From positions 1 to 11,980 of IMG/VR virus record IMGVR_UViG_2537562191_000041: a stretch of DNA of 11,980 nucleotides. The stretch is one strand, 5' to 3'. The DNA comes from a virus. Lineage: Duplodnaviria; Heunggongvirae; Uroviricota; Caudoviricetes. The position numbers and the translations under genes were made by a program. The notes under the pieces were generated by a model. That model did no database searches and was not told the DNA's origin. It saw nothing but the letters and a program-made list of their open reading frames with translations. Positions within the stretch are counted from its first letter, which is position 1; every line of letters begins with the position of its first letter. Positions 1-11,980 of this stretch are shown here, in pieces.

Positions 1-2
1 AA

Positions 3-194
3 GCAATGACTGAATTGCTTGACCGTTACGTTGCAGCCGGTGCGCTGGTTACTCCACGTGACAAATCCCAGGGCGAAGATCCATATGTTGTTCAGGTTGT
101 CCAAAAGGACATCGATCTGTGGGAAGTGTCCTGGTCTGTTTGTCCGACCGGTACAGCTCGCCGAATCGTCGGTAAGCCAATTCTGATGCGCTGA
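3..194 (+). CDS. 3' end of a CDS that probably begins upstream of the window (alternatively a 62-aa ORF from ATG at 6); product unknown
   Basis: Frame is open from the window edge to TGA at 192-194; a GC stem-loop follows 8 bp later; no recognisable motif in the translation. Confidence 0.4.
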   Translation, partial: AMTELLDRYVAAGALVTPRDKSQGEDPYVVQVVQKDIDLWEVSWSVCPTGTARRIVGKPILMR

Positions 195-202
195 TTTATA
201 AC

Positions 203-224
203 CCCCCGCTAAATGATGCGGGGG
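203..224 (+). terminator. GC-rich stem-loop (CCCCCGC / 8-nt loop / GCGGGGG); possible terminator or 5'-leader structure
   Basis: Perfect 7-bp inverted repeat read directly; no U-tract follows, so intrinsic-terminator function is uncertain. Confidence 0.35.
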
Positions 225-238
225 AAAGAGGTTTGAAT

Positions 239-973
239 ATGAAAAATTATACTGCTGATCCTTTTATGCGTGCGATTTTCGGTTCTGGCTGCTTTGAAAG
301 CGGTGATAAATCCACGCAGGACAATAATGATAACGCCATGCTGGAAAGCGCAGGACAGAAAGGAAAGGACACTCAACCAAAGCCCAAAGACGACATTGAA
401 ACCGCGATGATGGAAGCGGTTGAATCCCGTGCACAAGGTGATATGCGCAGCCTGGCAGCGTCCATGCTTGCTGGTTGGGTTGAAGATGGTGATCCGGAGG
501 CTGACTCATTTGATGCATTAGCAATCACTATGGCTGGCCTGGCTGATATCGATGAAGACACCGATTTCACCGATGAGCAAATCGATGCTTATAACGATGC
601 TCTCGCAGCTCTTGCTGATGCAGCTGTTGCGCTTGGCGCTGATCAGGACGATGTAACCGAAATGATCGACGATGAAGATGACTCAGCTGCCGAACGTGTT
701 TATGACGCTCTTTCCGAAAGCGACACCGACATGATGGAAACAGCTATTGCCATTTACACCGTTGCTGGTGGTGATAGCGCAATGCTGGAAGCGGTACGTA
801 AAAAAGTGGTTCGTGATGGCAAGGTTACCATCATCCGTAAACGCCCGCGTCCTCGCCGCATGACGTCATTGCAAAAACAGGCGCTGAAAAAAGCACGCCG
901 CAAAGCACATACATCCGTAGCGAATATCAACCGCAAAAAATCAATGCGCATTCGCAAAAAACGCGGTTTGTAA
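239..973 (+). CDS. hypothetical protein: D/E-rich body with a strongly basic (K/R-rich) C-terminal tail of about 50 residues
   Basis: ATG at 239 preceded by AAAGAGG (225-231) at 7-nt spacing; the ORF-track start at 233 is TTG two codons upstream. Composition read from translation (e.g. IDEDTDFTDEQIDAYNDALAALADAA then RKRPRPRR...KKARRKA...RIRKKRGL). Confidence 0.7.
   Translation: MKNYTADPFMRAIFGSGCFESGDKSTQDNNDNAMLESAGQKGKDTQPKPKDDIETAMMEAVESRAQGDMRSLAASMLAGWVEDGDPEADSFDALAITMAGLADIDEDTDFTDEQIDAYNDALAALADAAVALGADQDDVTEMIDDEDDSAAERVYDALSESDTDMMETAIAIYTVAGGDSAMLEAVRKKVVRDGKVTIIRKRPRPRRMTSLQKQALKKARRKAHTSVANINRKKSMRIRKKRGL
764..771 (+). other. Chi site (5'-GCTGGTGG-3')
   Basis: Exact octamer read on the + strand. 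Confidence 0.6.
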
Positions 974-980
974 GTGACAC

Positions 981-1002
981 AGGCCACCTGCAAAGGTGGC
1001 CT
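981..1002 (+). terminator. hairpin (AGGCCACC / 6-nt loop / GGTGGCCT) just downstream of the 239-973 stop; possible terminator or RNA-stability element
   Basis: Perfect 8-bp inverted repeat read directly; no U-tract. Confidence 0.35.
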
Positions 1003-1022
1003 CTACCTGGGAGAAATAGCGT

Positions 1023-1613
1023 TTGATTTGCGGCGCGATAATGCCTGACGGAATAAGTCCGTTAATGAAGGTTTATATCCTCTCTTCAGAGGATATGGTC
1101 GTCGGTTATATCGGTGAAGGATCTACCGCAGAACTGTCATCAATGTGGCAATCACCATTTGAAAACCAGTCAGTAGGAGGTTTGCTTGGCGGTATTAGCG
1201 CTGCGGCTGGCTCTCTTGCAGATACGCTTCAGACCGCAACCGGCGTAACAACAAAAACCCTCTTCAACTCAATGCTTGTTTGGGAAGGTCAGCAACCGCC
1301 TGAATTTAATCTGGTAATTGATTTCATGGCGACAACGAACGCGCAACTTGAAGTGAACGCAGCCATTACAGCATTGCTGAAGATGGAATCGCCGGAACTG
1401 AACAATGTAGCGCCATTCGGTCGTCGCCCGGAGACAGTAACGTTAAACATAGGTAGGAACATAGCCCTTACCGACGTTGTTATCAAAAGCGTGAGTTACC
1501 AACTGGACGCCCCGCGCACACCGGAAGGCTATTTCACTCATAACACGGTAACCCTGCAATGCAGCGGTAACACATCGATCAACCGTAGCAATATCTCATC
1601 TGTTTTTGTGTAG
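1023..1613 (+). CDS. hypothetical protein, possibly virion-structural (beta-rich, Gly/Ala-rich segment); start codon uncertain (TTG 1023, ATG 1041 or ATG 1065)
   Basis: Long ORF; its stop TAG 1611-1613 overlaps the AGGAG Shine-Dalgarno of the next gene, an operon-like arrangement; GGGAG at 1009-1013 would serve the TTG at 1023. Confidence 0.55.
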   Translation: MICGAIMPDGISPLMKVYILSSEDMVVGYIGEGSTAELSSMWQSPFENQSVGGLLGGISAAAGSLADTLQTATGVTTKTLFNSMLVWEGQQPPEFNLVIDFMATTNAQLEVNAAITALLKMESPELNNVAPFGRRPETVTLNIGRNIALTDVVIKSVSYQLDAPRTPEGYFTHNTVTLQCSGNTSINRSNISSVFV

Positions 1614-1621
1614 GAGTATTT

Positions 1622-2107
1622 ATGTCCGGTTTTGCAAATACAAAAGCCGATATGGCCTTTCTAAAATCCCGGTTTAATAAAAACCTGGCTGCAGGCGAAA
1701 AACTTATTGGTTCTGAATATTGGATGACCATTAAGGGTTACGAACATCTGTCTGTACTAGTTCGTACAGCTCAGTTACCAGAAATGACACGTGAAGATGT
1801 GGAGGATTACGCCCCTGGTGGCATGAAATTCAACCAGCACGGACCATTACGCAACTCTGGTGAATTTCAGGTCACATGCGCGGAAACTATCGAAGGCGCA
1901 GTTCTCGCCGCTGTAAAACAGATGGTATACGGAAAAGAATATCTGGAAATTACCTTACAGGCGGCGGCTGAATCGAATAGCGGTAACCATAAAGGTCTGA
2001 TCCGCACATATTCTCATTGCAAAGTGTATTCCGACGCCGTGGATTTCTCATCCGAAGACGTAACGGCGGTCGTTAAACTGAACCGCCCCGGAAATCCTGG
2101 AGACTAA
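1622..2107 (+). CDS. hypothetical protein whose native C-terminus has been replaced by an IS insertion; current reading frame runs about 10 codons into the IS left end
   Basis: ATG 1622 with AGGAG (1612-1616) at 5-nt spacing; the IS left inverted repeat begins at 2079 inside the ORF, so the final residues (LNRPGNPGD) are IS-encoded. Weak pattern resemblance to tail-tube-type proteins, not verified. Confidence 0.6.
2076..2078 (+). repeat. left copy of 3-bp target-site duplication (AAC) of the IS
   Basis: AAC immediately abuts the IS left end and is repeated at 3389-3391. Confidence 0.6.
2079..2105 (+). repeat. IS left terminal inverted repeat (IRL)
   Basis: TGAACCGCCCCGGAAATCCTGGAGACT matches the reverse complement of 3362-3388 with about 4 mismatches. 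Confidence 0.7.
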
Positions 2108-2132
2108 ACTCCCTGAGAAAGAGGTAAACAGG

Positions 2133-2459
2133 ATGACTAAAAATACTCGTTTTTCCCCCGAAGTCCGTCAGCGGGCGATTCGTATGGTTCTGGAAAGTCA
2201 GGATGAATATGACTCACAGTGGGCGGCAATTTGTTCCATTGCCCCAAAGATTGGCTGTACGCCGGAGACTCTGCGTGTCTGGGTTCGCCAGCATGAGCGG
2301 GATACCGGGGGCGGTGATGGTGGGCTCACCAGCGCTGAACGTCAGCGTCTGAAAGAGCTGGAACGTGAAAATCGTGAACTGCGCCGCAGTAACGATATCC
2401 TTCGCCAGGCTTCCGCTTATTTTGCGAAGGCGGAGTTCGACCGCCTCTGGAAAAAATGA
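2133..2459 (+). CDS. IS3-family transposase OrfA (helix-turn-helix / leucine-zipper part)
   Basis: 108-aa ORF starting [19 protein letters not shown], recognised from memory as the IS629-group orfA; GAGG Shine-Dalgarno upstream; ends within the A6 slippery run. Confidence 0.85.
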
Positions 2460-3346
2460 TGCCACTGCTGGATAAGCTGCGTGAGCAGTACGGGGTCGGA
2501 CCGGTATGCAGCGAACTGCATATTGCCCCGTCAACGTATTACCATTGTCAGCAACAGCGACATCATCCGGATAAACGCAGTGCCCGTGCGCAGCACGACG
2601 ACTGGCTGAAGAGAGAGATACAGCGCGTATACGATGAAAATCATCAGGTGTACGGTGTGCGTAAAGTCTGGCGTCAGTTGTTACGGGAAGGAATCAGGGT
2701 GGCCAGATGTACAGTGGCACGTCTCATGGCGGTTATGGGACTTGCCGGTGTTCTCCGGGGTAAAAAGGTCCGTACGACCATCAGCCGGAAAGCCGTTGCC
2801 GCAGGCGACCGCGTAAACCGTCAGTTCGTGGCAGAACGACCTGACCAGCTGTGGGTGGCTGATTTTACTTACGTCAGCACATGGCAGGGCTTCGTCTATG
2901 TGGCGTTTATCATTGATGTGTTTGCCGGATACATCGTGGGGTGGCGGGTCTCATCGTCTATGGAAACGACATTCGTGCTGGATGCGCTGGAGCAGGCGTT
3001 GTGGGCCCGTCGTCCGTCTGGCACCATCCATCACAGCGATAAAGGCTCTCAGTATGTGTCACTGGCCTATACGGAGCGACTAAAAGAAGCCGGATTACTG
3101 GCATCAACAGGGAGTACAGGCGACTCGTATGACAACGCGATGGCTGAGAGCATCAATGGTCTTTACAAAGCGGAGGTAATACACCGTAAGAGCTGGAAAA
3201 ACCGTGCAGAAGTGGAACTGGCCACACTAACGTGGGTGGACTGGTATAACAATCGACGATTGCTGGGAAGGCTGGGCCATACTCCTCCGGCAGAAGCAGA
3301 AAAAGCTTATTATGCTTCCATCGGAAACGATGATCTGGCAGCCTGA
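2456..3346 (+). CDS. IS3-family transposase OrfB (DDE catalytic domain); probably expressed as an OrfAB fusion by -1 frameshift
   Basis: 296-aa ORF in the -1 frame relative to orfA, overlapping at AAAAAATGA; contains the HSDKGSQY and [15 protein letters not shown] motifs typical of the IS3 DDE transposase. Confidence 0.85.
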
Positions 3347-3361
3347 GTTCACAGATAAAAC

Positions 3362-3388
3362 ACTCTCCAGGAAACCCGGGGCGGTTCA
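3362..3388 (+). repeat. IS right terminal inverted repeat (IRR)
   Basis: Reverse complement TGAACCGCCCCGGGTTTCCTGGAGAGT pairs with IRL. Confidence 0.7.
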
Positions 3389-3391
3389 AAC
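3389..3391 (+). repeat. right copy of 3-bp target-site duplication (AAC)
   Basis: Identical to 2076-2078, immediately after the terminal CA of the IS. Confidence 0.6.
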
Positions 3392-3433
3392 CTTCTCTGC
3401 GCATTGTTTACAACTGGGCGGAATAATCCCTAT
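3392..3433 (+). other. displaced original 3' end of the IS-interrupted gene 1622-2107 (would encode ...VK-PSLRIVYNWAE-stop)
   Basis: Deleting the IS plus one AAC copy restores the same frame, which continues to TAA at about 3431-3433; a CCCGCC/GGCGGG stem-loop follows at about 3436-3452. Confidence 0.5.
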
Positions 3434-3480
3434 CCCGCCCTTGTGGCGGGAACATCCTTGTTATTGAGTTGTAGGCAACA

Positions 3481-4032
3481 ATGACACCAATTGAATTATT
3501 AGAAAGCGTTAAAGAGCGATTTAATCCGCTGCTTGTGCGTGAAGAAGAAACGTTGAAAGCATTCCTGATCAAAGCTCTGACCACGTATCAGGACAGGGCA
3601 GGGGTAGTGAAAACGTTAAAACTTGAAAAAGCTGGTGGTACTGCAATCCCGTTGCCAGAAGATTATCTCTCTCTGGTTCAGGTTACCGACAACAACGGCT
3701 TGTTGGTCTATTCGGATGAATTATCCGGATTTATTGAATTAGAACTAACAGGTTCAGAACGCTGGCCTTTTCGAATGCTGTATCTGGTTAATCTACGCGA
3801 CAGAAAGCTGGATGAATGGCAAGTGCCTCCTGCAATCATTGGAATGCTGGAGGAATATCTGGAGGCGCTTATCAATGTAAGAAATGTCGCCCGGCAGCGT
3901 AGAGCGTCCATCGACGGGAAATTTGACTACTCCGATCTGCCCGATGAAGCCACGCTATATGCCCGCGTGCAGGAGATTGAGGAAAAAATGTCCTCAAACC
4001 GGGCCATTATTCCGGGGGCTACCATTTTTTAA
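3481..4032 (+). CDS. hypothetical protein (183 aa)
   Basis: ATG ORF with a weak AGG Shine-Dalgarno; no recognisable motif; transcribed in the same direction as neighbouring structural-type genes. Confidence 0.55.
   Translation: MTPIELLESVKERFNPLLVREEETLKAFLIKALTTYQDRAGVVKTLKLEKAGGTAIPLPEDYLSLVQVTDNNGLLVYSDELSGFIELELTGSERWPFRMLYLVNLRDRKLDEWQVPPAIIGMLEEYLEALINVRNVARQRRASIDGKFDYSDLPDEATLYARVQEIEEKMSSNRAIIPGATIF
3630..3637 (+). other. Chi site (5'-GCTGGTGG-3')
   Basis: Exact octamer read on the + strand. Confidence 0.6.
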
Positions 4033-4047
4033 CGCTGGAGGCGCAGA

Positions 4048-4755
4048 GTGAGTATTTTCAGCAGCGTTGGTAGAACGTTGACCACCGCATTGTCATTTAA
4101 CACGAAATCATTCACCAGCAACCTCATTAGCGACATTCTTGATAAAGCCATATCAGGCGGCGGGGTAAGCGGGAATTACAGTAGCGATATTGCCTACGGG
4201 AAAAATATTGTTGCTGCCGCTATGCGTATCCGTTACGCCCAGGGGTGGCAGTGGACCGTTGAAGTGGATGGCCTGAACGGCTTCGATATGTTCGTGAAGG
4301 ATATCACCTACAGCAGTGGAAACATTGAGACAGAAAGCAAGGTGATCGGCAGCGTAGAATTCAGCAAGCCAACCTATGTTAGCGCCGGACCGGTCACTAT
4401 GACCGTGAGGGATACCGAAGATGGCAAGATCATGGACTGGTTCAAAGAGCGTCGTTCTCGTGTAACAAATCCTGATGGAACAATAAACCTTCCTCCTGAA
4501 TATCTGATGAAAATCCGTGTCTACCGGGTAACTCAGGACGGCGGAAAAGAACTGGAAGAAGAAATGCGCGTATTTCCTACGCAACTTGGGGAAATCACAC
4601 GCTCACGTGATCAGGTGTCAGAGTTCTTGTCATACCCAATCACTTTCCAGAAATACACATCCGCAGGCTCAGGTGTTTCTGCTTTGGTCAACGGTGCCGC
4701 GGGCATGGCTACAAGTGCGTTAAAGGGGGCTATCAGTGGAGTGATCAAATTCTGA
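4048..4755 (+). CDS. hypothetical protein (235 aa), beta-rich with Gly/Ala-rich C-terminus; GTG start
   Basis: GTG at 4048 preceded by GGAGG (4037-4041) at 6-nt spacing; ORF ends 12 bp before the first incA-like iteron. Confidence 0.6.
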   Translation: MSIFSSVGRTLTTALSFNTKSFTSNLISDILDKAISGGGVSGNYSSDIAYGKNIVAAAMRIRYAQGWQWTVEVDGLNGFDMFVKDITYSSGNIETESKVIGSVEFSKPTYVSAGPVTMTVRDTEDGKIMDWFKERRSRVTNPDGTINLPPEYLMKIRVYRVTQDGGKELEEEMRVFPTQLGEITRSRDQVSEFLSYPITFQKYTSAGSGVSALVNGAAGMATSALKGAISGVIKF

Positions 4756-4767
4756 AATGCTTTAATT

Positions 4768-4989
4768 ATGTGTGCTGTAGGGAAAGGTTTACGTTAAATG
4801 TGTGCTGCCGGGAAACCCCATTGCTCAAGATGTGTTGTAGAGGGAATGGTAATGGCAACATGTGTGCTGGAGGGGAATTTCGCATGTAAAGAGCGTCATT
4901 TATCCCGCCAGCACACATCTGAACTAAGCAATCCTCTGAAATTCCCTCCACCACACATCCAGACATGAAACTATCCCTTCAGCACACAT
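4768..4989. repeat. incA-like iteron array downstream of repA: seven copies of the ATGTGTGCTGnnGGGAA-type repeat, four in one orientation and three inverted
   Basis: Iteron cores read at 4768, 4798, 4830, 4860 (ATGTGTGCTG orientation, ~30-bp phasing; the third is degenerate) and at 4909, 4949, 4980 (CAGCACACAT orientation); the last abuts the repA stop. Confidence 0.8.
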
Positions 4990-5850
4990 TTAATCTGTTG
5001 GTTTAAGTTTCGGATTCCGAGAGTGAACGATAATGAAGTTTTCACGACCTTGCTTTTCAATGGTGCAATCGAGATAACCTATTGTTTTTAACTGTTCTAT
5101 AGCTTTTTTTATCGTTCTGTTTTGCTCACTTACCGATGACATCAAGGCTAATCTTTCACGTATTCTGGCAAATGAAATAGGTATTGGACGTGCCGGGAGG
5201 CTTTCTATAAAGGTATATATGGCCTGGGCTGCTTCTTTTTTAGGTAAAGCGCGAAGTGCGTGTTGCTGTAGAAGCACCCGATAGTCTAGCTGGAAGATTT
5301 CCCATAACTTGGAATCAGCCTCCAGTTCAACGACATCTGTTTCAAAGCCAAAATATCCCGTTTTAAGCAGGCCAGTATTGTAGCTTCCACGAGCACTTTT
5401 CCCTCTTTTGAATGAGATGCCTTTGTTGCGTAACCGACCTAAAGAATCGTGGATCGTGTTTCTTAATTTCCCATCAAGTCGCTTAGATGGAAATCCGCAC
5501 GCCTTTGCAAATTCTTGAAAAGAAAGGCGAATTGTATTCGATGATAAGCCATACTTGCTAAATGAGTAGATTACCCCAATCCAGACTTTGAAATCAGTAT
5601 CCATGTCCAAGCGAGGGCCAGTGATCTTGATGTTGTCGTAGCCTTCTGCTTGAGCTATTTCCAGTTTGGAAAAAACAGATGATGCATCTATCTCGTTGTT
5701 TTCACCCTGTTTTTTAGTTGGTTTAGGGACGAAAACACCAAGCCGCATAAGTGCGACAGGTTGAACAGTATTGTTCGAATTAACTGTTAATTCTTTAGCC
5801 TTGCTTTCAATGTCAGCATAAAGAATATCAGAGATAAATGACTTATCCAT
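4990..5850 (-). CDS. repA: iteron-binding replication initiator RepA, P1 / RepFIB family
   Basis: 286-aa ORF (from ATG at 5850; the ORF track starts one codon earlier at TTG 5853) flanked on both sides by repeats matching the P1-type 19-bp iteron; the N-terminus MDKSFISDILYADIESKAKE resembles my memory of P1 RepA. Confidence 0.9.
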   Translation of the reverse strand: MDKSFISDILYADIESKAKELTVNSNNTVQPVALMRLGVFVPKPTKKQGENNEIDASSVFSKLEIAQAEGYDNIKITGPRLDMDTDFKVWIGVIYSFSKYGLSSNTIRLSFQEFAKACGFPSKRLDGKLRNTIHDSLGRLRNKGISFKRGKSARGSYNTGLLKTGYFGFETDVVELEADSKLWEIFQLDYRVLLQQHALRALPKKEAAQAIYTFIESLPARPIPISFARIRERLALMSSVSEQNRTIKKAIEQLKTIGYLDCTIEKQGRENFIIVHSRNPKLKPTD

Positions 5851-5908
5851 CAATAAGTTACCGTCATGTTGTGAATAAAGTTTACGACAGTGGATATCCG
5901 GCTTTTTT

Positions 5909-6011
5909 TCCCGTCAGCACACATCCTACATCCCGTCAGCACACATGTAAAACCCTCCAGCACACATATTTTTCCCGTCAGCACACATCATTTTCCCTCC
6001 AGCACACATCT
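5909..6011. repeat. incC-like iteron array upstream of repA: five direct iterons at 21-22-bp phasing, probably containing the autoregulated repA promoter
   Basis: CAGCACACAT cores start at 5915, 5937, 5958, 5979 and 6000, all in the same orientation as repA transcription. Confidence 0.85.
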
Positions 6012-6055
6012 GAATAGTGGTTAAAGCCTTATGTGGCGCGGCCTGAAGAGCTACG

Positions 6056-6118
6056 GGATCTATTTGGTACTATATGGATCTAATCAGGATCTATATATTG
6101 GATCTATCCTGTGGATAA
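6056..6118. promoter_or_regulatory. oriR-like replication origin core: four GGATCTA heptamers (each with a Dam GATC site) and a consensus DnaA box
   Basis: GATC at 6057, 6077, 6088 and 6101 inside the repeated heptamer GGATCTA; TGTGGATAA at 6110-6118 is the reverse complement of TTATCCACA; an A-rich tract follows. Confidence 0.75.
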
Positions 6119-6204
6119 AAAAGAAGAATTACAAAGCTCCACCCAATTTCACACACTACCTATCCTCCAACGAATAAACAGACATCTGCTTATCGGAGGA
6201 ATAC

Positions 6205-7026
6205 TTGAACATTCCAAAATTCCCATTGCCTTCCCGTCCTGAGACAGAAATTCAGTTCCACGCCCCTACCGTGAAGGATGCGCTGAAATATTCTGACCTG
6301 AACCCGGCAGAAGATGAGGCAACTACTACAGAGTACCTTAACTCTATGCAGGATGGTGAAATTAACGACAGTGCTTACTGGACAGTCCAGGATCGCAGAA
6401 CTGCCCTTTGGTGGATATTTGTTAATTCGCGCCCCGATGCAGTAATGACTTACTCCTATGAGTGCAGTCACTGCGGTAATACGCATCACGCCGATATAAA
6501 CCTGAGCGATCTGGCTCAAACAGTAGAGATACTCACTGTACCGCCTTACGTAAAAACCAACGTACCGGTAAACGGTGTACCAACTGACTGGATACTTAAA
6601 CCATTAACCGGGAAAGGCGCGGAACTCCTTGAACGTATGCGTGCGTCACTTCCTGATATGAAAAGCCCTGAATACAGTGCAGGCGTGGCCCGTATGCGCA
6701 TTGCAGAACTCGCTTTATGCACGGCACTGGACGACGATCCGGAAGACTTCACTCAAGCAGCTAACCGACGCTTCGACATCATTGAAAGCATGGCGCTTGA
6801 AACCGAGTTTACACCGCTTGTGGCTCGCATACAGCTTATGCAAAAAGACCTACGCCACGGCCTGAAAATGTCTATTGAGAGAGGCACAAGCCGACTGATC
6901 CTGCCTCCGCAACATTGCAAAAACGCTAAGGAGGGTGCAGATGTGACAACCACACTGTACGTCCCCTTTCTCAATAGAGAGTTTATCCCATCAATTAGAT
7001 CTGAATGGATGGCTAACCATTATTAA
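6205..7026 (+). CDS. hypothetical protein (273 aa) immediately upstream of the tape-measure-like gene; possibly a tail assembly or accessory protein; TTG start
   Basis: TTG at 6205 preceded by GGAGG (6194-6198) at 6-nt spacing; the first in-frame ATG is about 47 codons downstream; contains a CSHC pair. Confidence 0.55.
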   Translation: MNIPKFPLPSRPETEIQFHAPTVKDALKYSDLNPAEDEATTTEYLNSMQDGEINDSAYWTVQDRRTALWWIFVNSRPDAVMTYSYECSHCGNTHHADINLSDLAQTVEILTVPPYVKTNVPVNGVPTDWILKPLTGKGAELLERMRASLPDMKSPEYSAGVARMRIAELALCTALDDDPEDFTQAANRRFDIIESMALETEFTPLVARIQLMQKDLRHGLKMSIERGTSRLILPPQHCKNAKEGADVTTTLYVPFLNREFIPSIRSEWMANHY

Positions 7027-7172
7027 CAACCTGACTCTATATGGATATCAGCCCGTTAGCGACGTTGAACAATTACCGCAATGGCGAGCACTCCATATGT
7101 CAAAAGCCCTAGAAGAAAAATACAAAGCTCAAGCCGGGAAACGTTGATCGCGCTGGTAAAAGAGAGGTTATT

Positions 7173-10100
7173 TTGAAAGAGAATAAAGACCGTATCGCAA
7201 TAATTGACGCTATTCAGGAAGCGAGCACAAACGAACTTAAAGCTCTTGCTGAGGTAAAAGACGCCATTCTTTCTGGGGCAAGCACCATAACTCAACAGGA
7301 CGAAAGGCAAGGCAGAGTTAGCAACAGACTATCACGCAGGCGTAAAGAGTACGAGCAAAGTACATCTGATAGCGTTAGAGATGTCCAAACTAACCCATAT
7401 AAAAAACGTCTCACTGCTAAAAAGGAAAGGGCACCGATAAACCAAACCGTGGACCGCGCTATCGTTGCAACGAACACACCAGAAAGTGTTCGCTCCGTGC
7501 AATCACGTCAGACCATCCGAAAATCGGACGGTTTTATACCGGTAGCTGCTAATTCAGCCCCTCTTGAACCACAATCCCCCCAAAGTCTAAAAGGCCCGCT
7601 GCGGGATAGTAATGGACGTTTTGTATCCCAGAAAAGCAATGAGGATGTAGCCAGAAAAAAAGAAATGCAGAACGCACGTAAAGCCGACGCAAAATTACAA
7701 GCTGGCTTTCTCAGAAAGCTAGGTTCCATTATGGGGGTAGATGGCAATCAGTCTTCCAGTGAAGAGTCTTTAACAAATGCAGCTGGTGTCGGTGCTGGTG
7801 GGCCGTTATGGATGGCGGCTCGTGGCATGTACGACATAACTAAAGAGATCACAGGTAAAGCAGAATCTCTTAAAGAATGGGTAGAAAAGGGGAAAAAAGA
7901 AACATCAACCTCGAAAGCGATATCACCAGTAATTACTTATCCGGCGGCGGTGAATTCTCAAAAAGCAACATCTGCAAAAGCGTTCAATAACGCTGTTGAG
8001 ACAAAATCCGCACAAGCAGTAGAAGAGCAAACCAAAATCCTTCAGACCAATGACAACAAAATAATTGATGGTCTGGAAAATGTTTCTGACGAGATAGTTA
8101 AGCTTCGGAAATCAGTGTCTTCTGGAAATAAGTTCGGCTTAAGTGATCTCTGGAAAAATCGAGCAAGCAGAAGAAATAAAATCAATATTGGTGATCGGGC
8201 GGGAAAAAATAAACGGAACACATCGAAAAGGAAAGGCCACAATCTTGGGAAAAAAGCACTCTCCGTTGGCGAAAAAGTTGCTGCCGGTAGCGCTGCAGCT
8301 GGCACTGGTGTCGGAACAGCCAAAGCAGTTAAAAATAAGATCAGCAAACCCAAAGATGTAAGCACTATCAGCGATACATCAAAGGGGATTGCAAAGGAAA
8401 CAAAAAATACTGCTAAGGCCGTGAAGTCAGCTGGTGTTGTGGCTGAAGATACTACCATTAAAACCGGCGAAGCCATTGCAAAGAAAAAAACTGAATCTGT
8501 AGCCCTCAAAAGTGCTGCAAAAATAGGTGTTAAATCAGCAGCATCCACAGCGGCAAGAGCGGTCCCTATCATCGGTTCGCTGGCAATGGCTGGATATGAC
8601 GCCATAGATGGTTACACAGATATAGAGGCGCAAAAGGCAGCCTTTGGTTTAAGTGACGATGATGCTGTATCCGAACAGCAAAAAACGGCTTACGCAACAG
8701 CTAATGTGCTCGATATGGGGGGCTTGGTGTCGGGCGCAACAAACTTGATAGGGAAAGGAATTTCTGCGCTAGGATTTGAAAGAGCTGGTGAAAAACTTCA
8801 GAATTTTGATACCGGAGATATTGCTCGTGGTGTTAACGGTGCAGTAGATATCACCAAATCTGTTTTTGGTAGCCTTAAGGATACATTTTTATCCACTGAC
8901 GAAAACACGAAACAAGTAAAAAAAGCGGTTGAGGATGGCACCAAGAAGACCGTCGATGCGATTCATTCTTTAGGTGAGCAGCTACAAGGCGGGCGTGATG
9001 GTGAAGATGGTGTTGGTGAGCACGGGTATACTTCCCCGGCTGAATTTAATGCCCCTGCCAGCAACACCATTGCAGCGGATCTGAATATTGGTGGCAGCAA
9101 CGCTAAAAACCGCAATTACCGGAATAATAACCTCGGCAACCTTGTTTTCGCTAATCAGGAAGGGGCTGCGCTGGAAGCACCAAATGCAAAAGGTGAACAA
9201 CGTTTTGCGCGATTTAACACGCCTGAAGAAGGGATCAGGGCGCTGGCAAACCAGGTGTCAAGCTATTACAACGGCACCAGCGCCGCTGCTGGGTATCAGA
9301 AGCTACAGACGGTATCCAGTATTATTTCCAAATGGGCACCCCCAAAGGAGAACAATACTAATCAATATATTGATAACGTCAGCAAATATCTTGGCGTCTC
9401 GCCTAATGAAAAAATAGACGTCAGCAACCCAGAAGTTATGACGCAATTAGTTCGTGCAATAGCGACGAAAGAAGGTGGAAACCCGGCGGTTAACAATGAG
9501 TTCATAAAGAATGCTCTTGGGGCATTTAACACAAACACTGGTCGATGGGAGGGACAATTCTCTGACGAAACATTGGCGCGGATTAATAAAATTCAGAAAG
9601 AAAATGGTGGTCAGCTAATTGCCCGCGATTCGCAATATAGTGTTGGTCGCAAGGTAAAATATGCTAATGGAAAATCTCCAGCTCAACCAGTTTTGAATGC
9701 CGTTCCGACAGCAACACAACAGCCAATTGAGGTTGCACAACATGCCCAGGCAGTCAAAAAGCCACAAAAAACAGGCAATCAATCGCAACCGATTAATCCA
9801 GAGAATGTTGATGTTAATACTGGCTCGCCATCAAGTCTGCTTGAGAGATTAATCGCTATAAATGACAGCGGGGTAGGTAATTTATTTGGAGGTGCGGCTA
9901 CCAGCATTGCTGGTACAAGCCTTGGCCTGATTAAGGATTTTGCGTCGGCGACTTCGTTTGGTTCTATATCTTCGCTTTCCGAAAAAGCGAAAGGAATGGA
10001 TCAGGCTCTTACTGAAAAGATATCCAGCTTAACCGGTAAATCTTTTGGATTTCAAAAAGCAAGCCAGGTAACTGATATAAGAGACGCTTTACAAAAAAGA

Positions 10101-10823
10101 CCAAAAGCTGAACGCGATATGCCTTCAGTGGATCTTCTTTCCGGTGTTTCTTCGGCAAGTGAGAGTGAAAAAATCTCTGTAAACTCAAGGGGGATTCCAG
10201 TTTATGACAATGGATACAAGGTAATTGATGGTGAAGATAAGGGGGTGCTTGGCTCTTTGTTTGACTCGTCATTAACAGGTCTGAAACGTATTAGCTCTGC
10301 TGTGTTACCTGCAATTGGCGATAACGTTTCACGACTTATTGGTGGGGTAGATGGCACTGGCATTGTTAATGATTTGGTTTATCAGGCTACTGGGCAGAAC
10401 TCAACAATTGCGAGGGCTATTAGCCCGCTTACCAGGAGCGCCGGTAGTTGGCTGAATAATGGTATTCAACAAACCGCAGATAGCATTAGAGGTATATCAA
10501 ACGAAGCCAATAATGCCATATTTGGCTCTGCGTCAGCCGTGCAAGAACCTTTTCTTGCTATGCCACCACAGCTTCCTACTGTAACAGATCTCGCACGAAG
10601 CGGAATAAGACAACCATTAACTACTGACACTATAAATAACGATCCTGCTATGTTGAAGGCGCTGGATAACATCTGCTCTATCCTGAACGACCTTCTGAAT
10701 GTGAACAAGAACAATACAAAAGGCGATCCGGATAAGGTTGTCAAAACATCGCAGCCGCAACCGCGACCACGTGCTAGCACAACTATTAATGACCCGTCGC
10801 TGGATGCTCTGCTTGAGGATTAA
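7173..10823 (+). CDS. large virion protein (1216 aa), tape-measure / Sit-like injection protein with a globular domain embedded in its C-terminal half
   Basis: TTG at 7173 is the only start codon after the in-frame TAG at 7110-7112 and has AAGAGAGG at 6-nt spacing; long A/G/K/S-rich helical-type sequence with hydrophobic Gly-rich stretches; followed directly by baseplate-type genes. Confidence 0.75.
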   Translation: MKENKDRIAIIDAIQEASTNELKALAEVKDAILSGASTITQQDERQGRVSNRLSRRRKEYEQSTSDSVRDVQTNPYKKRLTAKKERAPINQTVDRAIVATNTPESVRSVQSRQTIRKSDGFIPVAANSAPLEPQSPQSLKGPLRDSNGRFVSQKSNEDVARKKEMQNARKADAKLQAGFLRKLGSIMGVDGNQSSSEESLTNAAGVGAGGPLWMAARGMYDITKEITGKAESLKEWVEKGKKETSTSKAISPVITYPAAVNSQKATSAKAFNNAVETKSAQAVEEQTKILQTNDNKIIDGLENVSDEIVKLRKSVSSGNKFGLSDLWKNRASRRNKINIGDRAGKNKRNTSKRKGHNLGKKALSVGEKVAAGSAAAGTGVGTAKAVKNKISKPKDVSTISDTSKGIAKETKNTAKAVKSAGVVAEDTTIKTGEAIAKKKTESVALKSAAKIGVKSAASTAARAVPIIGSLAMAGYDAIDGYTDIEAQKAAFGLSDDDAVSEQQKTAYATANVLDMGGLVSGATNLIGKGISALGFERAGEKLQNFDTGDIARGVNGAVDITKSVFGSLKDTFLSTDENTKQVKKAVEDGTKKTVDAIHSLGEQLQGGRDGEDGVGEHGYTSPAEFNAPASNTIAADLNIGGSNAKNRNYRNNNLGNLVFANQEGAALEAPNAKGEQRFARFNTPEEGIRALANQVSSYYNGTSAAAGYQKLQTVSSIISKWAPPKENNTNQYIDNVSKYLGVSPNEKIDVSNPEVMTQLVRAIATKEGGNPAVNNEFIKNALGAFNTNTGRWEGQFSDETLARINKIQKENGGQLIARDSQYSVGRKVKYANGKSPAQPVLNAVPTATQQPIEVAQHAQAVKKPQKTGNQSQPINPENVDVNTGSPSSLLERLIAINDSGVGNLFGGAATSIAGTSLGLIKDFASATSFGSISSLSEKAKGMDQALTEKISSLTGKSFGFQKASQVTDIRDALQKRPKAERDMPSVDLLSGVSSASESEKISVNSRGIPVYDNGYKVIDGEDKGVLGSLFDSSLTGLKRISSAVLPAIGDNVSRLIGGVDGTGIVNDLVYQATGQNSTIARAISPLTRSAGSWLNNGIQQTADSIRGISNEANNAIFGSASAVQEPFLAMPPQLPTVTDLARSGIRQPLTTDTINNDPAMLKALDNICSILNDLLNVNKNNTKGDPDKVVKTSQPQPRPRASTTINDPSLDALLED
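7794..7801 (+). other. Chi site (5'-GCTGGTGG-3')
   Basis: Exact octamer read on the + strand. Confidence 0.6.
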
Positions 10824-10828
10824 TACAG

Positions 10829-11203
10829 ATGCTTTATGAAATAGACGCAAGACTTCAAACGAATGAGAGCGGTGTCATTATTGCAGAAGGAAGTACCGCA
10901 GCATGGATGGCCCGACTTGACGAGTGGCTACGAACCCCTGAAGGGAGTGTTTATGGTTTACCCTCTTGGGGGAATCCAATGGAAGAATTTAAGCATGAAC
11001 CATTCGGCTCTGAAACTTCGCACATAGTTGAAGTGGCTATTGAAGGGAGAATGATGAAAAAACTACGACAAGACTTGCCAGGTTTGGATGTGGAGGGGAT
11101 TCGTTGCACATCAATTTCTGAAGATTCTTTATTAATTAGTTTTTATGCGAAAGGTGGGAGCATGGATATTGTTATGCAGAAATCAAGTGGGGTGGGCGCG
11201 TGA
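10829..11203 (+). CDS. baseplate wedge protein, gp25 / GPW-like (124 aa)
   Basis: Size and motif pattern (TPEGSVYGLPSWGNPMEEF...IVEVAIEG...DLPGLDVEGI) fit the gp25/GPW family as I remember it; position directly after the tape-measure-like gene. Confidence 0.55.
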   Translation: MLYEIDARLQTNESGVIIAEGSTAAWMARLDEWLRTPEGSVYGLPSWGNPMEEFKHEPFGSETSHIVEVAIEGRMMKKLRQDLPGLDVEGIRCTSISEDSLLISFYAKGGSMDIVMQKSSGVGA

Positions 11204-11980
11204 CGATTACAGAATTACTGGACAAATTTAACGCTAAGTTAAATGAAAACACATGGTGGTCACGATTTGTAAATAGTCAGTTTGTGCAGATGCACGCTAT
11301 ATTCGGATCACAGCTTATTTATATTGCCCGTACATTTGCAAGCCGCGGCCTCACTGAGGGACTTATTTCAACGGCTACGCGCCGCTCAAGTATTTTAGCG
11401 GTTGCTGAAGACCGTAGTTACGTAGGGCGATTTGTTAGTGCTTCATACGGAACAACGTCTATAACTAATAAAACTGATCGGGATATTACGTTACCAGCCG
11501 GGGCTGAATTGCTTGCCAATGACCAAACACCTTTGGCAATTATTAATAGTGTTGTAATTCCTGCTGGAGGAACTGTTTCTGGCGTAGAAACTAAACAGCA
11601 TGAAGCTGTTAGCGTTACATTTGATATTGAGAAGGAAACTTTATTTCTGACATTGTTGCTTTCCAGAGAGTTAACAAAAGAAGTCTCCAGCCTGGATGTT
11701 TATGTTATTACAGATGGCGTAGAAGAAAAATGGACATATAACCCATTATTTAGAATGTCCAGAGACAAGAGTAAGCACTATTCATTGGCATATAAACCTA
11801 CAGAACAACTTGGAGTCAAGTTTGGTGATGGTTCTATGGGTATGATGCCTCCAGCAGGCTGTCAGGTTCGAATCGATGTTATGGCTAGCCTTGGCGACTA
11901 TACTTTGGCTGAAGGACAAAAGTTAGAACCGGCTGGAAATATCGCTCAATATGTGGAGTCACTAGAGTTTAAAACTGATT
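11200..11980 (+). CDS. baseplate J-like protein, N-terminal part (continues beyond the window)
   Basis: GTG at 11200 overlaps the upstream TGA as GTGA, suggesting translational coupling; frame is open to the window end (about 260 codons); assignment is by position after the gp25-like gene and general composition only. Confidence 0.5.
   Translation, partial: MTITELLDKFNAKLNENTWWSRFVNSQFVQMHAIFGSQLIYIARTFASRGLTEGLISTATRRSSILAVAEDRSYVGRFVSASYGTTSITNKTDRDITLPAGAELLANDQTPLAIINSVVIPAGGTVSGVETKQHEAVSVTFDIEKETLFLTLLLSRELTKEVSSLDVYVITDGVEEKWTYNPLFRMSRDKSKHYSLAYKPTEQLGVKFGDGSMGMMPPAGCQVRIDVMASLGDYTLAEGQKLEPAGNIAQYVESLEFKTD

Follow-up and report, generated by a model that had tools for sequence, protein, structure and literature searches.

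We analyzed an 11,980-nucleotide stretch of viral DNA, positions 1 to 11,980 of the IMG/VR virus record IMGVR_UViG_2537562191_000041 (hereafter the window). Two open reading frames (ORFs) of the window, at 3481-4032 and 4048-4755 on the plus strand, lie between an insertion sequence (IS) and a P1-type replicon and encode proteins of 183 and 235 amino acids. A first-pass annotation had left both without a function and had called their location typical of accessory cargo, while allowing that they could equally be small tail or baseplate components. We found that the two ORFs very probably represent pmgC and tub from a D6-like phage-plasmid of the P1 family, coding for a head-to-tail adaptor and a tail-tube initiator, respectively. 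Neither gene is new, and structures have been determined for the orthologues in P1.

The first ORF (pmgC, 3481-4032) starts with ATG behind a weak ribosome-binding site (TAGG at 3472-3475). With phmmer its product matched the Protein Data Bank (PDB) chain 9ums_A, ʻPmgCʼ, over residues 1-183 of 183 (E=9.6e-52), and it matched phrog_1851 over its full length (E=3e-88). We compared the chain sequence of 9ums_A with that of P1 PmgC and found them to be the same. A PmgC family profile built from 21 diverse members hit PDB 9ums with E=1.2e-89. The protein is 52.5% identical to P1 PmgC across all 183 residues and 98.9% identical to the product of orf44 of phage D6 (NC_050154 / MF356679). Its C-terminal segment, ...MSSNRAIIPG, is conserved in the family: R174, A175, I176, and I177 show little or no variation across 21 sequences with identities down to 45%.

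The second ORF (tub, 4048-4755, stop codon at 4753-4755) starts with GTG, and the GGAGG that the first-pass annotation had seen in front of it is found at 4037-4041, 6 nt upstream of the start. The 235-residue product matched the PDB entries for ʻTubʼ, 9ay5_A and 9vzk, with a phmmer E-value of 2e-48, residues 27-214 aligning with residues 12-194 of 203. The Tub family profile (also 21 diverse members) covered residues 5-200 of the PDB protein (E=1.1e-85), and phrog_1842 was matched over the full length (E=1.3e-98). Identity amounts to 99.1% with D6 orf43 and to 51% with P1 Tub over the core (best segment). This conserved core, residues ~27-214, has an N-terminal extension on one side and a tail rich in glycine, alanine, and serine on the other; the tail, whose Gly/Ala-rich character had been noticed before, reads ...TSAGSGVSALVNGAAGMATSALKGAISGVIKF and ends in IKF. 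We collected 55 distinct Tub-family sequences. The non-P1 majority carries an N-terminal M-(S/G)-(I/F)-F-x-G motif and a C-terminal tail of ~30 residues, rich in small residues and ending in (I/L)-K-F, and P1 and its closest kin have shortened forms of both termini. Judged from this alignment, the Gly/Ala-rich C-terminal tail is a conserved trait of the Tub family.

Comparison of pmgC and tub with relatives at 84-90% amino acid identity gave proportions of nonsynonymous differences (pN) of 0.06-0.09 and of synonymous differences (pS) of 0.74-0.81. Because pN is far below pS and both products match PHROG families over their full length, we conclude that both ORFs are real genes under strong purifying selection, which bears out their earlier description as coding. 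The earlier remark that neither protein has a recognizable motif was fair as well. Scans of both against Pfam and NCBIfam returned no family match, a scan with the PADLOC defense models returned none either, and it is only PHROGs and PDB sequences that identify the pair. Searched against the PDB, the two family profiles found nothing credible beyond the P1 proteins themselves.

We then looked at the neighborhood of the two genes in related genomes. When IMG/VR was scanned with the Tub alignment, we obtained 80 loci with identities from 100% down to 43%, most of which lay on 80-95-kb contigs; the window proteins were mapped on all loci, and 85 loci had a Tub match. PmgC was encoded directly upstream of Tub in 84 of these 85, the exception being a weak 28% match in a Xanthomonas phage, and PmgB followed downstream wherever it was detected (83 of 83). 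The gap between tub and pmgB measures 12-428 bp in 59 loci, where pmgB and then the gene for the tape measure come after tub. In 24 loci, namely the D6-like clade including the window, plus one other, it is 1.45-4 kb wide. The order in P1 is LPsit-pmgC-tub-pmgB-sit-pmgA-bplA-16, and in Cronobacter phage JK004 it is sheath-21-pmgG-bplB-two small genes-pmgC-tub-pmgB-sit. D6 has the order 23 (capsid)-Ig protein-22 (sheath)-21-pmgG-bplB-pmgC-tub-[rep, opposite strand]-pmgB-sit-pmgA-bplA-16. In P1, JK004, D6, and the 80 IMG/VR loci, pmgC-tub thus stays in the tail/connector module, and this gene order places both genes in one conserved late operon, 22-21-pmgG-bplB-pmgC-tub-pmgB-sit-pmgA-bplA.

The element as a whole classifies as a D6-like phage-plasmid of the P1 family. 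The window is 98% identical to phage D6 at the DNA level (98.4% across 3384-4782), and for more than 100 plasmids of ~90 kb from E. coli, Shigella, and Salmonella, coverage of the query reached 80% or more. We assign the element to the P1g2 group of P1-like phage-plasmids, for which D6 serves as the reference (PMC10879196).

Insertions and neighboring genes in the tail operon

The gene in front of pmgC is bplB, which encodes the true major tail-tube protein and is interrupted. Its 5' part (1622-2078, plus strand, codons 1-152; PDB 8jan/9ay2 ʻBplBʼ, E=3e-51) was delimited by mapping the junction against D6, and the interrupted ORF runs on into the IS as far as 2107. The insertion is a 1310-bp copy of IS629/IS1203 of the IS3 family (2079-3388, plus strand). 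At 99.5-100% identity it matches elements that E. coli genome annotations name IS1203, and it contains orfA (2133-2459) and orfB (2456-3346), with Pfam HTH_Tnp_1 and rve domains. It is flanked by a 3-bp target duplication, AAC, at 2076-2078 and 3389-3391. The last 11 codons of bplB (PSLRIVYNWAE) and the stop codon have been displaced to 3392-3426 (plus strand). Removal of the IS in silico restored the ORF, with a product identical to D6 BplB; the bplB gene of D6 has no IS.

Insertion at codon 152 of 163 changes the C-terminus of BplB from PSLRIVYNWAE to LNRPGNPGD. The motif lost here, PxLR(I/V)VYNW(A/V)E, is kept in 32 of 32 distinct intact BplB C-termini of relatives, down to P1. Because BplB has lost this invariant C-terminal strand, the phage in this copy is probably tail-defective, though pmgC and tub are intact. 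We found no other record with the same IS-bplB junction in PLSDB or among complete E. coli genomes, which suggests that the insertion was a recent, private event. Plasmid pUTAK-22-3 was considered as a possible carrier of the same site and was rejected, as its IS copy sits in a different gene. A candidate hairpin downstream of the bplB stop codon (3412-3480) was also discarded, being no better than shuffled sequence (z=-0.97).

On the other side, tub is followed by a P1-type (IncY-like) replicon cassette of ~1.37 kb on the minus strand (4783-6148), whose sharp borders were defined by blastn against D6. The 19-bp incA iterons occupy 4768-4998; the first of them, ATGTGTGCTGTAGGGAAAG (ATGTGTGCTG...), lies at 4768, which leaves the 12-bp gap after the tub stop codon that had been reported. 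The gene repA (4990-5853, minus strand; Pfam Rep3_N) is oriented against pmgC and tub, so that the genes do converge on it, as described. Its product is 83.7% identical to P1 RepA and 92.6% identical to RepA of Cronobacter phage JK004. The incC iterons lie at 5915-6018, and inspection of the sequence located an oriR rich in GATC, with a DnaA box near 6110. Taken as a whole, the window is mosaic, combining virion genes of the D6 type, whose products are only ~40-55% identical to the P1 proteins, with a RepA at the 83.7% identity to P1 given above.

A P1-type repA/iteron cassette stands at the tub-pmgB junction in the window and in three other loci. D6 and most of its close kin have there an unrelated Rep_3-type cassette of similar size and with the same sharp borders (9399-10840 of the D6 locus), and the D6 Rep gave a BLASTP E-value of only 0.05 with the RepA of the window. 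In two further loci the RepA at this junction is 41% identical. Directly downstream of the tub stop codon, D6 also has one P1-type iteron, ATGTGTGCTGGAGGG, and a second, degenerate iteron in inverted orientation (9385-9420 of the D6 locus). D6 keeps this P1-type iteron despite its unrelated Rep; it looks like a relic of an earlier IncY-type cassette and suggests that the P1-type cassette came before the other.

A single tail operon is split by the replicon, because tub and pmgB are 12-428 bp apart in the 59 more distant relatives. The earlier placement of the two genes between an IS and a replicon therefore holds as to position, and IS629/IS1203 is real, but the two modules are themselves insertions into the operon. 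We conclude that the IS and the replicon cassette have invaded a conserved tail operon, and that pmgC and tub are not cargo brought in by either.

The remaining genes of the window belong to the same operon. Upstream of bplB lie the 3' end of the sheath gene 22 (1-194), a gene 21 homologue (233-973, plus strand), and the pmgG orthologue for the tube-linking baseplate protein (1023-1613, plus strand); these assignments follow the D6 annotation and PHROG matches, with phrog_1053 and phrog_1114 in the gene 21/pmgG region. Beyond the replicon, the pmgB orthologue (6205-7026, plus strand; phrog_1854, E=1e-134) is the gene that directly follows tub in relatives lacking the cassette. Next come sit (7173-10823, plus strand), annotated from D6 at 98% DNA identity as the tape measure/injection transglycosylase, and pmgA (10829-11203), after which bplA begins. 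At 7109-7111 the window has TAG where D6 has TGG, codon 24 of the sit ORF as annotated in D6 (region 7041-7175). The alignment with P1 Sit begins only at D6 codon ~44, which corresponds to the TTG at 7173 in the window, preceded by GAGAGG. Because P1 Sit aligns only from this codon, the D6-annotated start is probably over-extended and sit is probably intact in the window.

Predicted roles of PmgC and Tub

In the cryo-electron microscopy (cryo-EM) structure of P1, PmgC forms a dodecamer that acts as adaptor on the portal; its C-terminal domain is anchored between two adjacent portal subunits' clip domains, and the gp7 stopper caps its helix bundle (PMC12810830). The fold expected of the family has three domains, a helix bundle, an immunoglobulin-like domain, and the C-terminal domain. 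In P1, pmgC is essential, a knockout yielding heads and tails that stay unjoined, and both PmgC and Tub were detected in the virion proteome (PMC9024508). By orthology, PmgC of the window would assemble into a ring of 12 subunits, with the conserved C-terminal strand (...RAIIPG...) inserted between clip domains of adjacent portal subunits. The helix bundle, capped by a hexamer of the gp7 stopper, would then offer the docking surface for the finished tail. PmgC would thus complete the DNA-filled head by binding to the portal clip and present a surface for stopper and tail.

P1 Tub was described from cryo-EM as a hexameric ʻtube initiatorʼ, positioned above the tube-linking ring of PmgG and below 52 tail-tube rings of BplB (PMC12810830). 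An independent model of the P1 baseplate, 9AY5, likewise has Tub as one ring under the tube and reports that Tub fails to fit the inner-tube map; the first 23 residues of P1 Tub were omitted from this model for lack of density (bioRxiv 10.1101/2025.07.21.665459). Transferred to the window, Tub would be a ring of six subunits with a tube-like fold. Seated on the ring that PmgG forms in the baseplate hub, it would nucleate or template the polymerization of BplB into a tail tube, with Sit as the tape measure at its center. It is a less likely idea that the conserved Gly/Ala-rich C-terminal tail ending in IKF and the N-terminal MSIFS motif face the lumen and let the tape measure dock there. The earlier suggestion of small tail or baseplate components accordingly fits the 235-residue protein, as baseplate tube initiator, and comes close for the 183-residue protein, which is part of the head-tail connector.

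Several points weigh against these assignments. The functions are transferred from P1 to proteins of the D6 clade across ~50% identity, and D6-clade Tub extends ~14 residues at the N-terminus and ~11 residues at the C-terminus beyond P1 Tub. A single-sequence AlphaFold2 model of the 235-residue protein had a predicted local distance difference test score (pLDDT) of 37.8, too low for the model to be of use. When the Tub family was compared by hhalign with those of BplB and PmgG, neither alignment was significant (E=0.032 and 0.11, respectively, with probabilities below 2%), and for the tube fold that Tub, BplB, and PmgG would share we draw on the literature on the P1 orthologues. Public annotation still gives the older labels, ʻtail tube proteinʼ for Tub and ʻhead morphogenesisʼ for PmgC; the functional labels used here therefore rest mainly on two recent structural studies of P1.

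Alternative readings and transcription of the locus

The names in public records raise the question of whether the 235-residue protein might be the major tail-tube subunit rather than a single-ring initiator. GenBank and RefSeq records of D6 and P1, as well as phrog_1842, call Tub ʻtail tube proteinʼ, and in the 2022 proteome of P1 the signals of Tub and BplB were similar, with HHpred matching each of the two to T4 gp19 (PMC9024508). We consider this highly improbable: the two independent cryo-EM studies of P1 agree that the tube consists of BplB and that Tub is one hexameric ring below it, the Tub model misfits the tube density, and the operon has a separate BplB orthologue (1622-2078 plus 3392-3426; PDB 8jan, E=3e-51). 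Less probable still, to the point of being negligible, is that pmgC and tub are accessory cargo or plasmid-maintenance genes, for example in place of the parAB genes missing beside incA. Such a role would suit their location between IS and replicon, 12 bp from incA, the lack of Pfam and NCBIfam families for both proteins, and the lack of par genes after incA in the window. Yet both are orthologous over their full length to virion proteins whose structures have been solved, neither has a PADLOC match, and their strong purifying selection is that expected of core structural genes. Cargo should vary in its presence, whereas these genes are kept in relatives with or without an adjacent replicon (84 of 85 loci), in 59 of them within an uninterrupted tail operon, and it is the IS and the cassette that have sharp insertion borders inside the operon. 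The first-pass annotation had proposed profile searches and a survey of neighboring structural genes, and had named homology to tail-tube or connector proteins conserved in synteny across related phages as what would speak against cargo. Since exactly such homology was found, by the PDB and PHROG matches to PmgC and Tub and by the gene order in relatives, the cargo interpretation is refuted.

A third possibility accepts pmgC and tub as identified and holds that they are silent relics: IS629 would block late transcription and destroy the tail-tube gene, so that the element persists only as a plasmid. Here we see the arguments as evenly balanced. The IS replaces the BplB C-terminal motif kept in all 32 distinct intact sequences, its junction is absent from other PLSDB and complete E. 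coli genome records, as fits a recent private event, and between the IS and pmgC we detected neither a sigma-70-like promoter on the plus strand nor a late-promoter pattern of the P1 type. Against this, neither ORF is disrupted and each shares 99% identity with D6, so any decay must be very recent; the IS has the same orientation as the operon, which makes read-through possible, and its excision or recombination could restore bplB. The P1-type late-promoter pattern, which had no match in the window or in D6, was built from only two P1 examples (LPsit and LPs) and is hence weak. Expression of pmgC-tub may also be hit by polarity.

Transcription beyond tub was considered as well. Between 4755 and 6205 we found no terminator-like site on the plus strand downstream of tub and no sigma-70-like plus-strand promoter upstream of pmgB; the only promoter-like site in this interval, on the minus strand within the incC iterons, is that of repA. 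Because no terminator follows tub and no recognizable promoter precedes pmgB, late transcription from pmgC-tub may have to run through incA and, antisense, across repA to pmgB-sit. If true, the expression of virion genes would be coupled to a shut-off of plasmid replication. We regard as unlikely this coupling and, with it, the idea that the tub-pmgB junction is a dedicated slot for replicon exchange that splits one late tail operon.

The analysis removes a false lead, in that two ʻhypotheticalʼ genes turn out to encode core parts of the virion, with structures already solved for the P1 orthologues. This has little bearing on discovery and some practical value for annotation: in many plasmid records the two still go under ʻhypotheticalʼ, ʻtail tubeʼ, or ʻhead morphogenesisʼ, and should be named head-to-tail adaptor and tube initiator instead. 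Of modest interest are the IS629 copy in bplB and the possible replicon-exchange slot in the tail operon, the former since the break in bplB bears on whether the phage-plasmid can still spread as a virus.

Comparison with D6, P1, T4, and T7

The closest known system is D6, in which orf44 (PmgC-like) and orf43 (Tub-like) are the same genes in the same order, at the identities given above. P1 PmgC (PDB 9ums) is a full-length homologue, and the RAIIPG segment that binds the portal clip in P1 is kept; the protein of the window is 5 residues shorter at the C-terminus. In both elements the gene lies directly upstream of tub, but P1 pmgC comes after the immI/sim region, with LPsit as a late promoter of its own, whereas pmgC of the window directly follows bplB. 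P1 Tub (PDB 9ay5, 9vzk) has a homologous core, and its gene likewise stands between pmgC and pmgB. Compared with the 203 residues of P1 Tub, the 235-residue protein has ~14 extra residues at the N-terminus, an insertion of 5 residues, and a C-terminal tail that is 11 residues longer.

Our searches of the PDB with the Tub and PmgC family profiles found no sequence-level relation to T4 or T7 counterparts. A marginal match to T7 gp11 (E=0.6) hit the Tub profile rather than the PmgC profile and is not meaningful. The P1 papers do report links by HHpred, of PmgC to T7 gp11 and T4 gp13, of Tub to gp19, the tail-tube protein of T4, and of PmgG to T4 gp48 (PMC9024508; bioRxiv 10.1101/2025.07.21.665459). 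According to these papers, and by analogy or remote homology, PmgC has the same architectural role in head-tail connectors as the adaptor and neck proteins T7 gp11 and T4 gp13, and Tub corresponds in its role in contractile tails to T4 gp54/gp48, the tube initiator and tube-baseplate junction.

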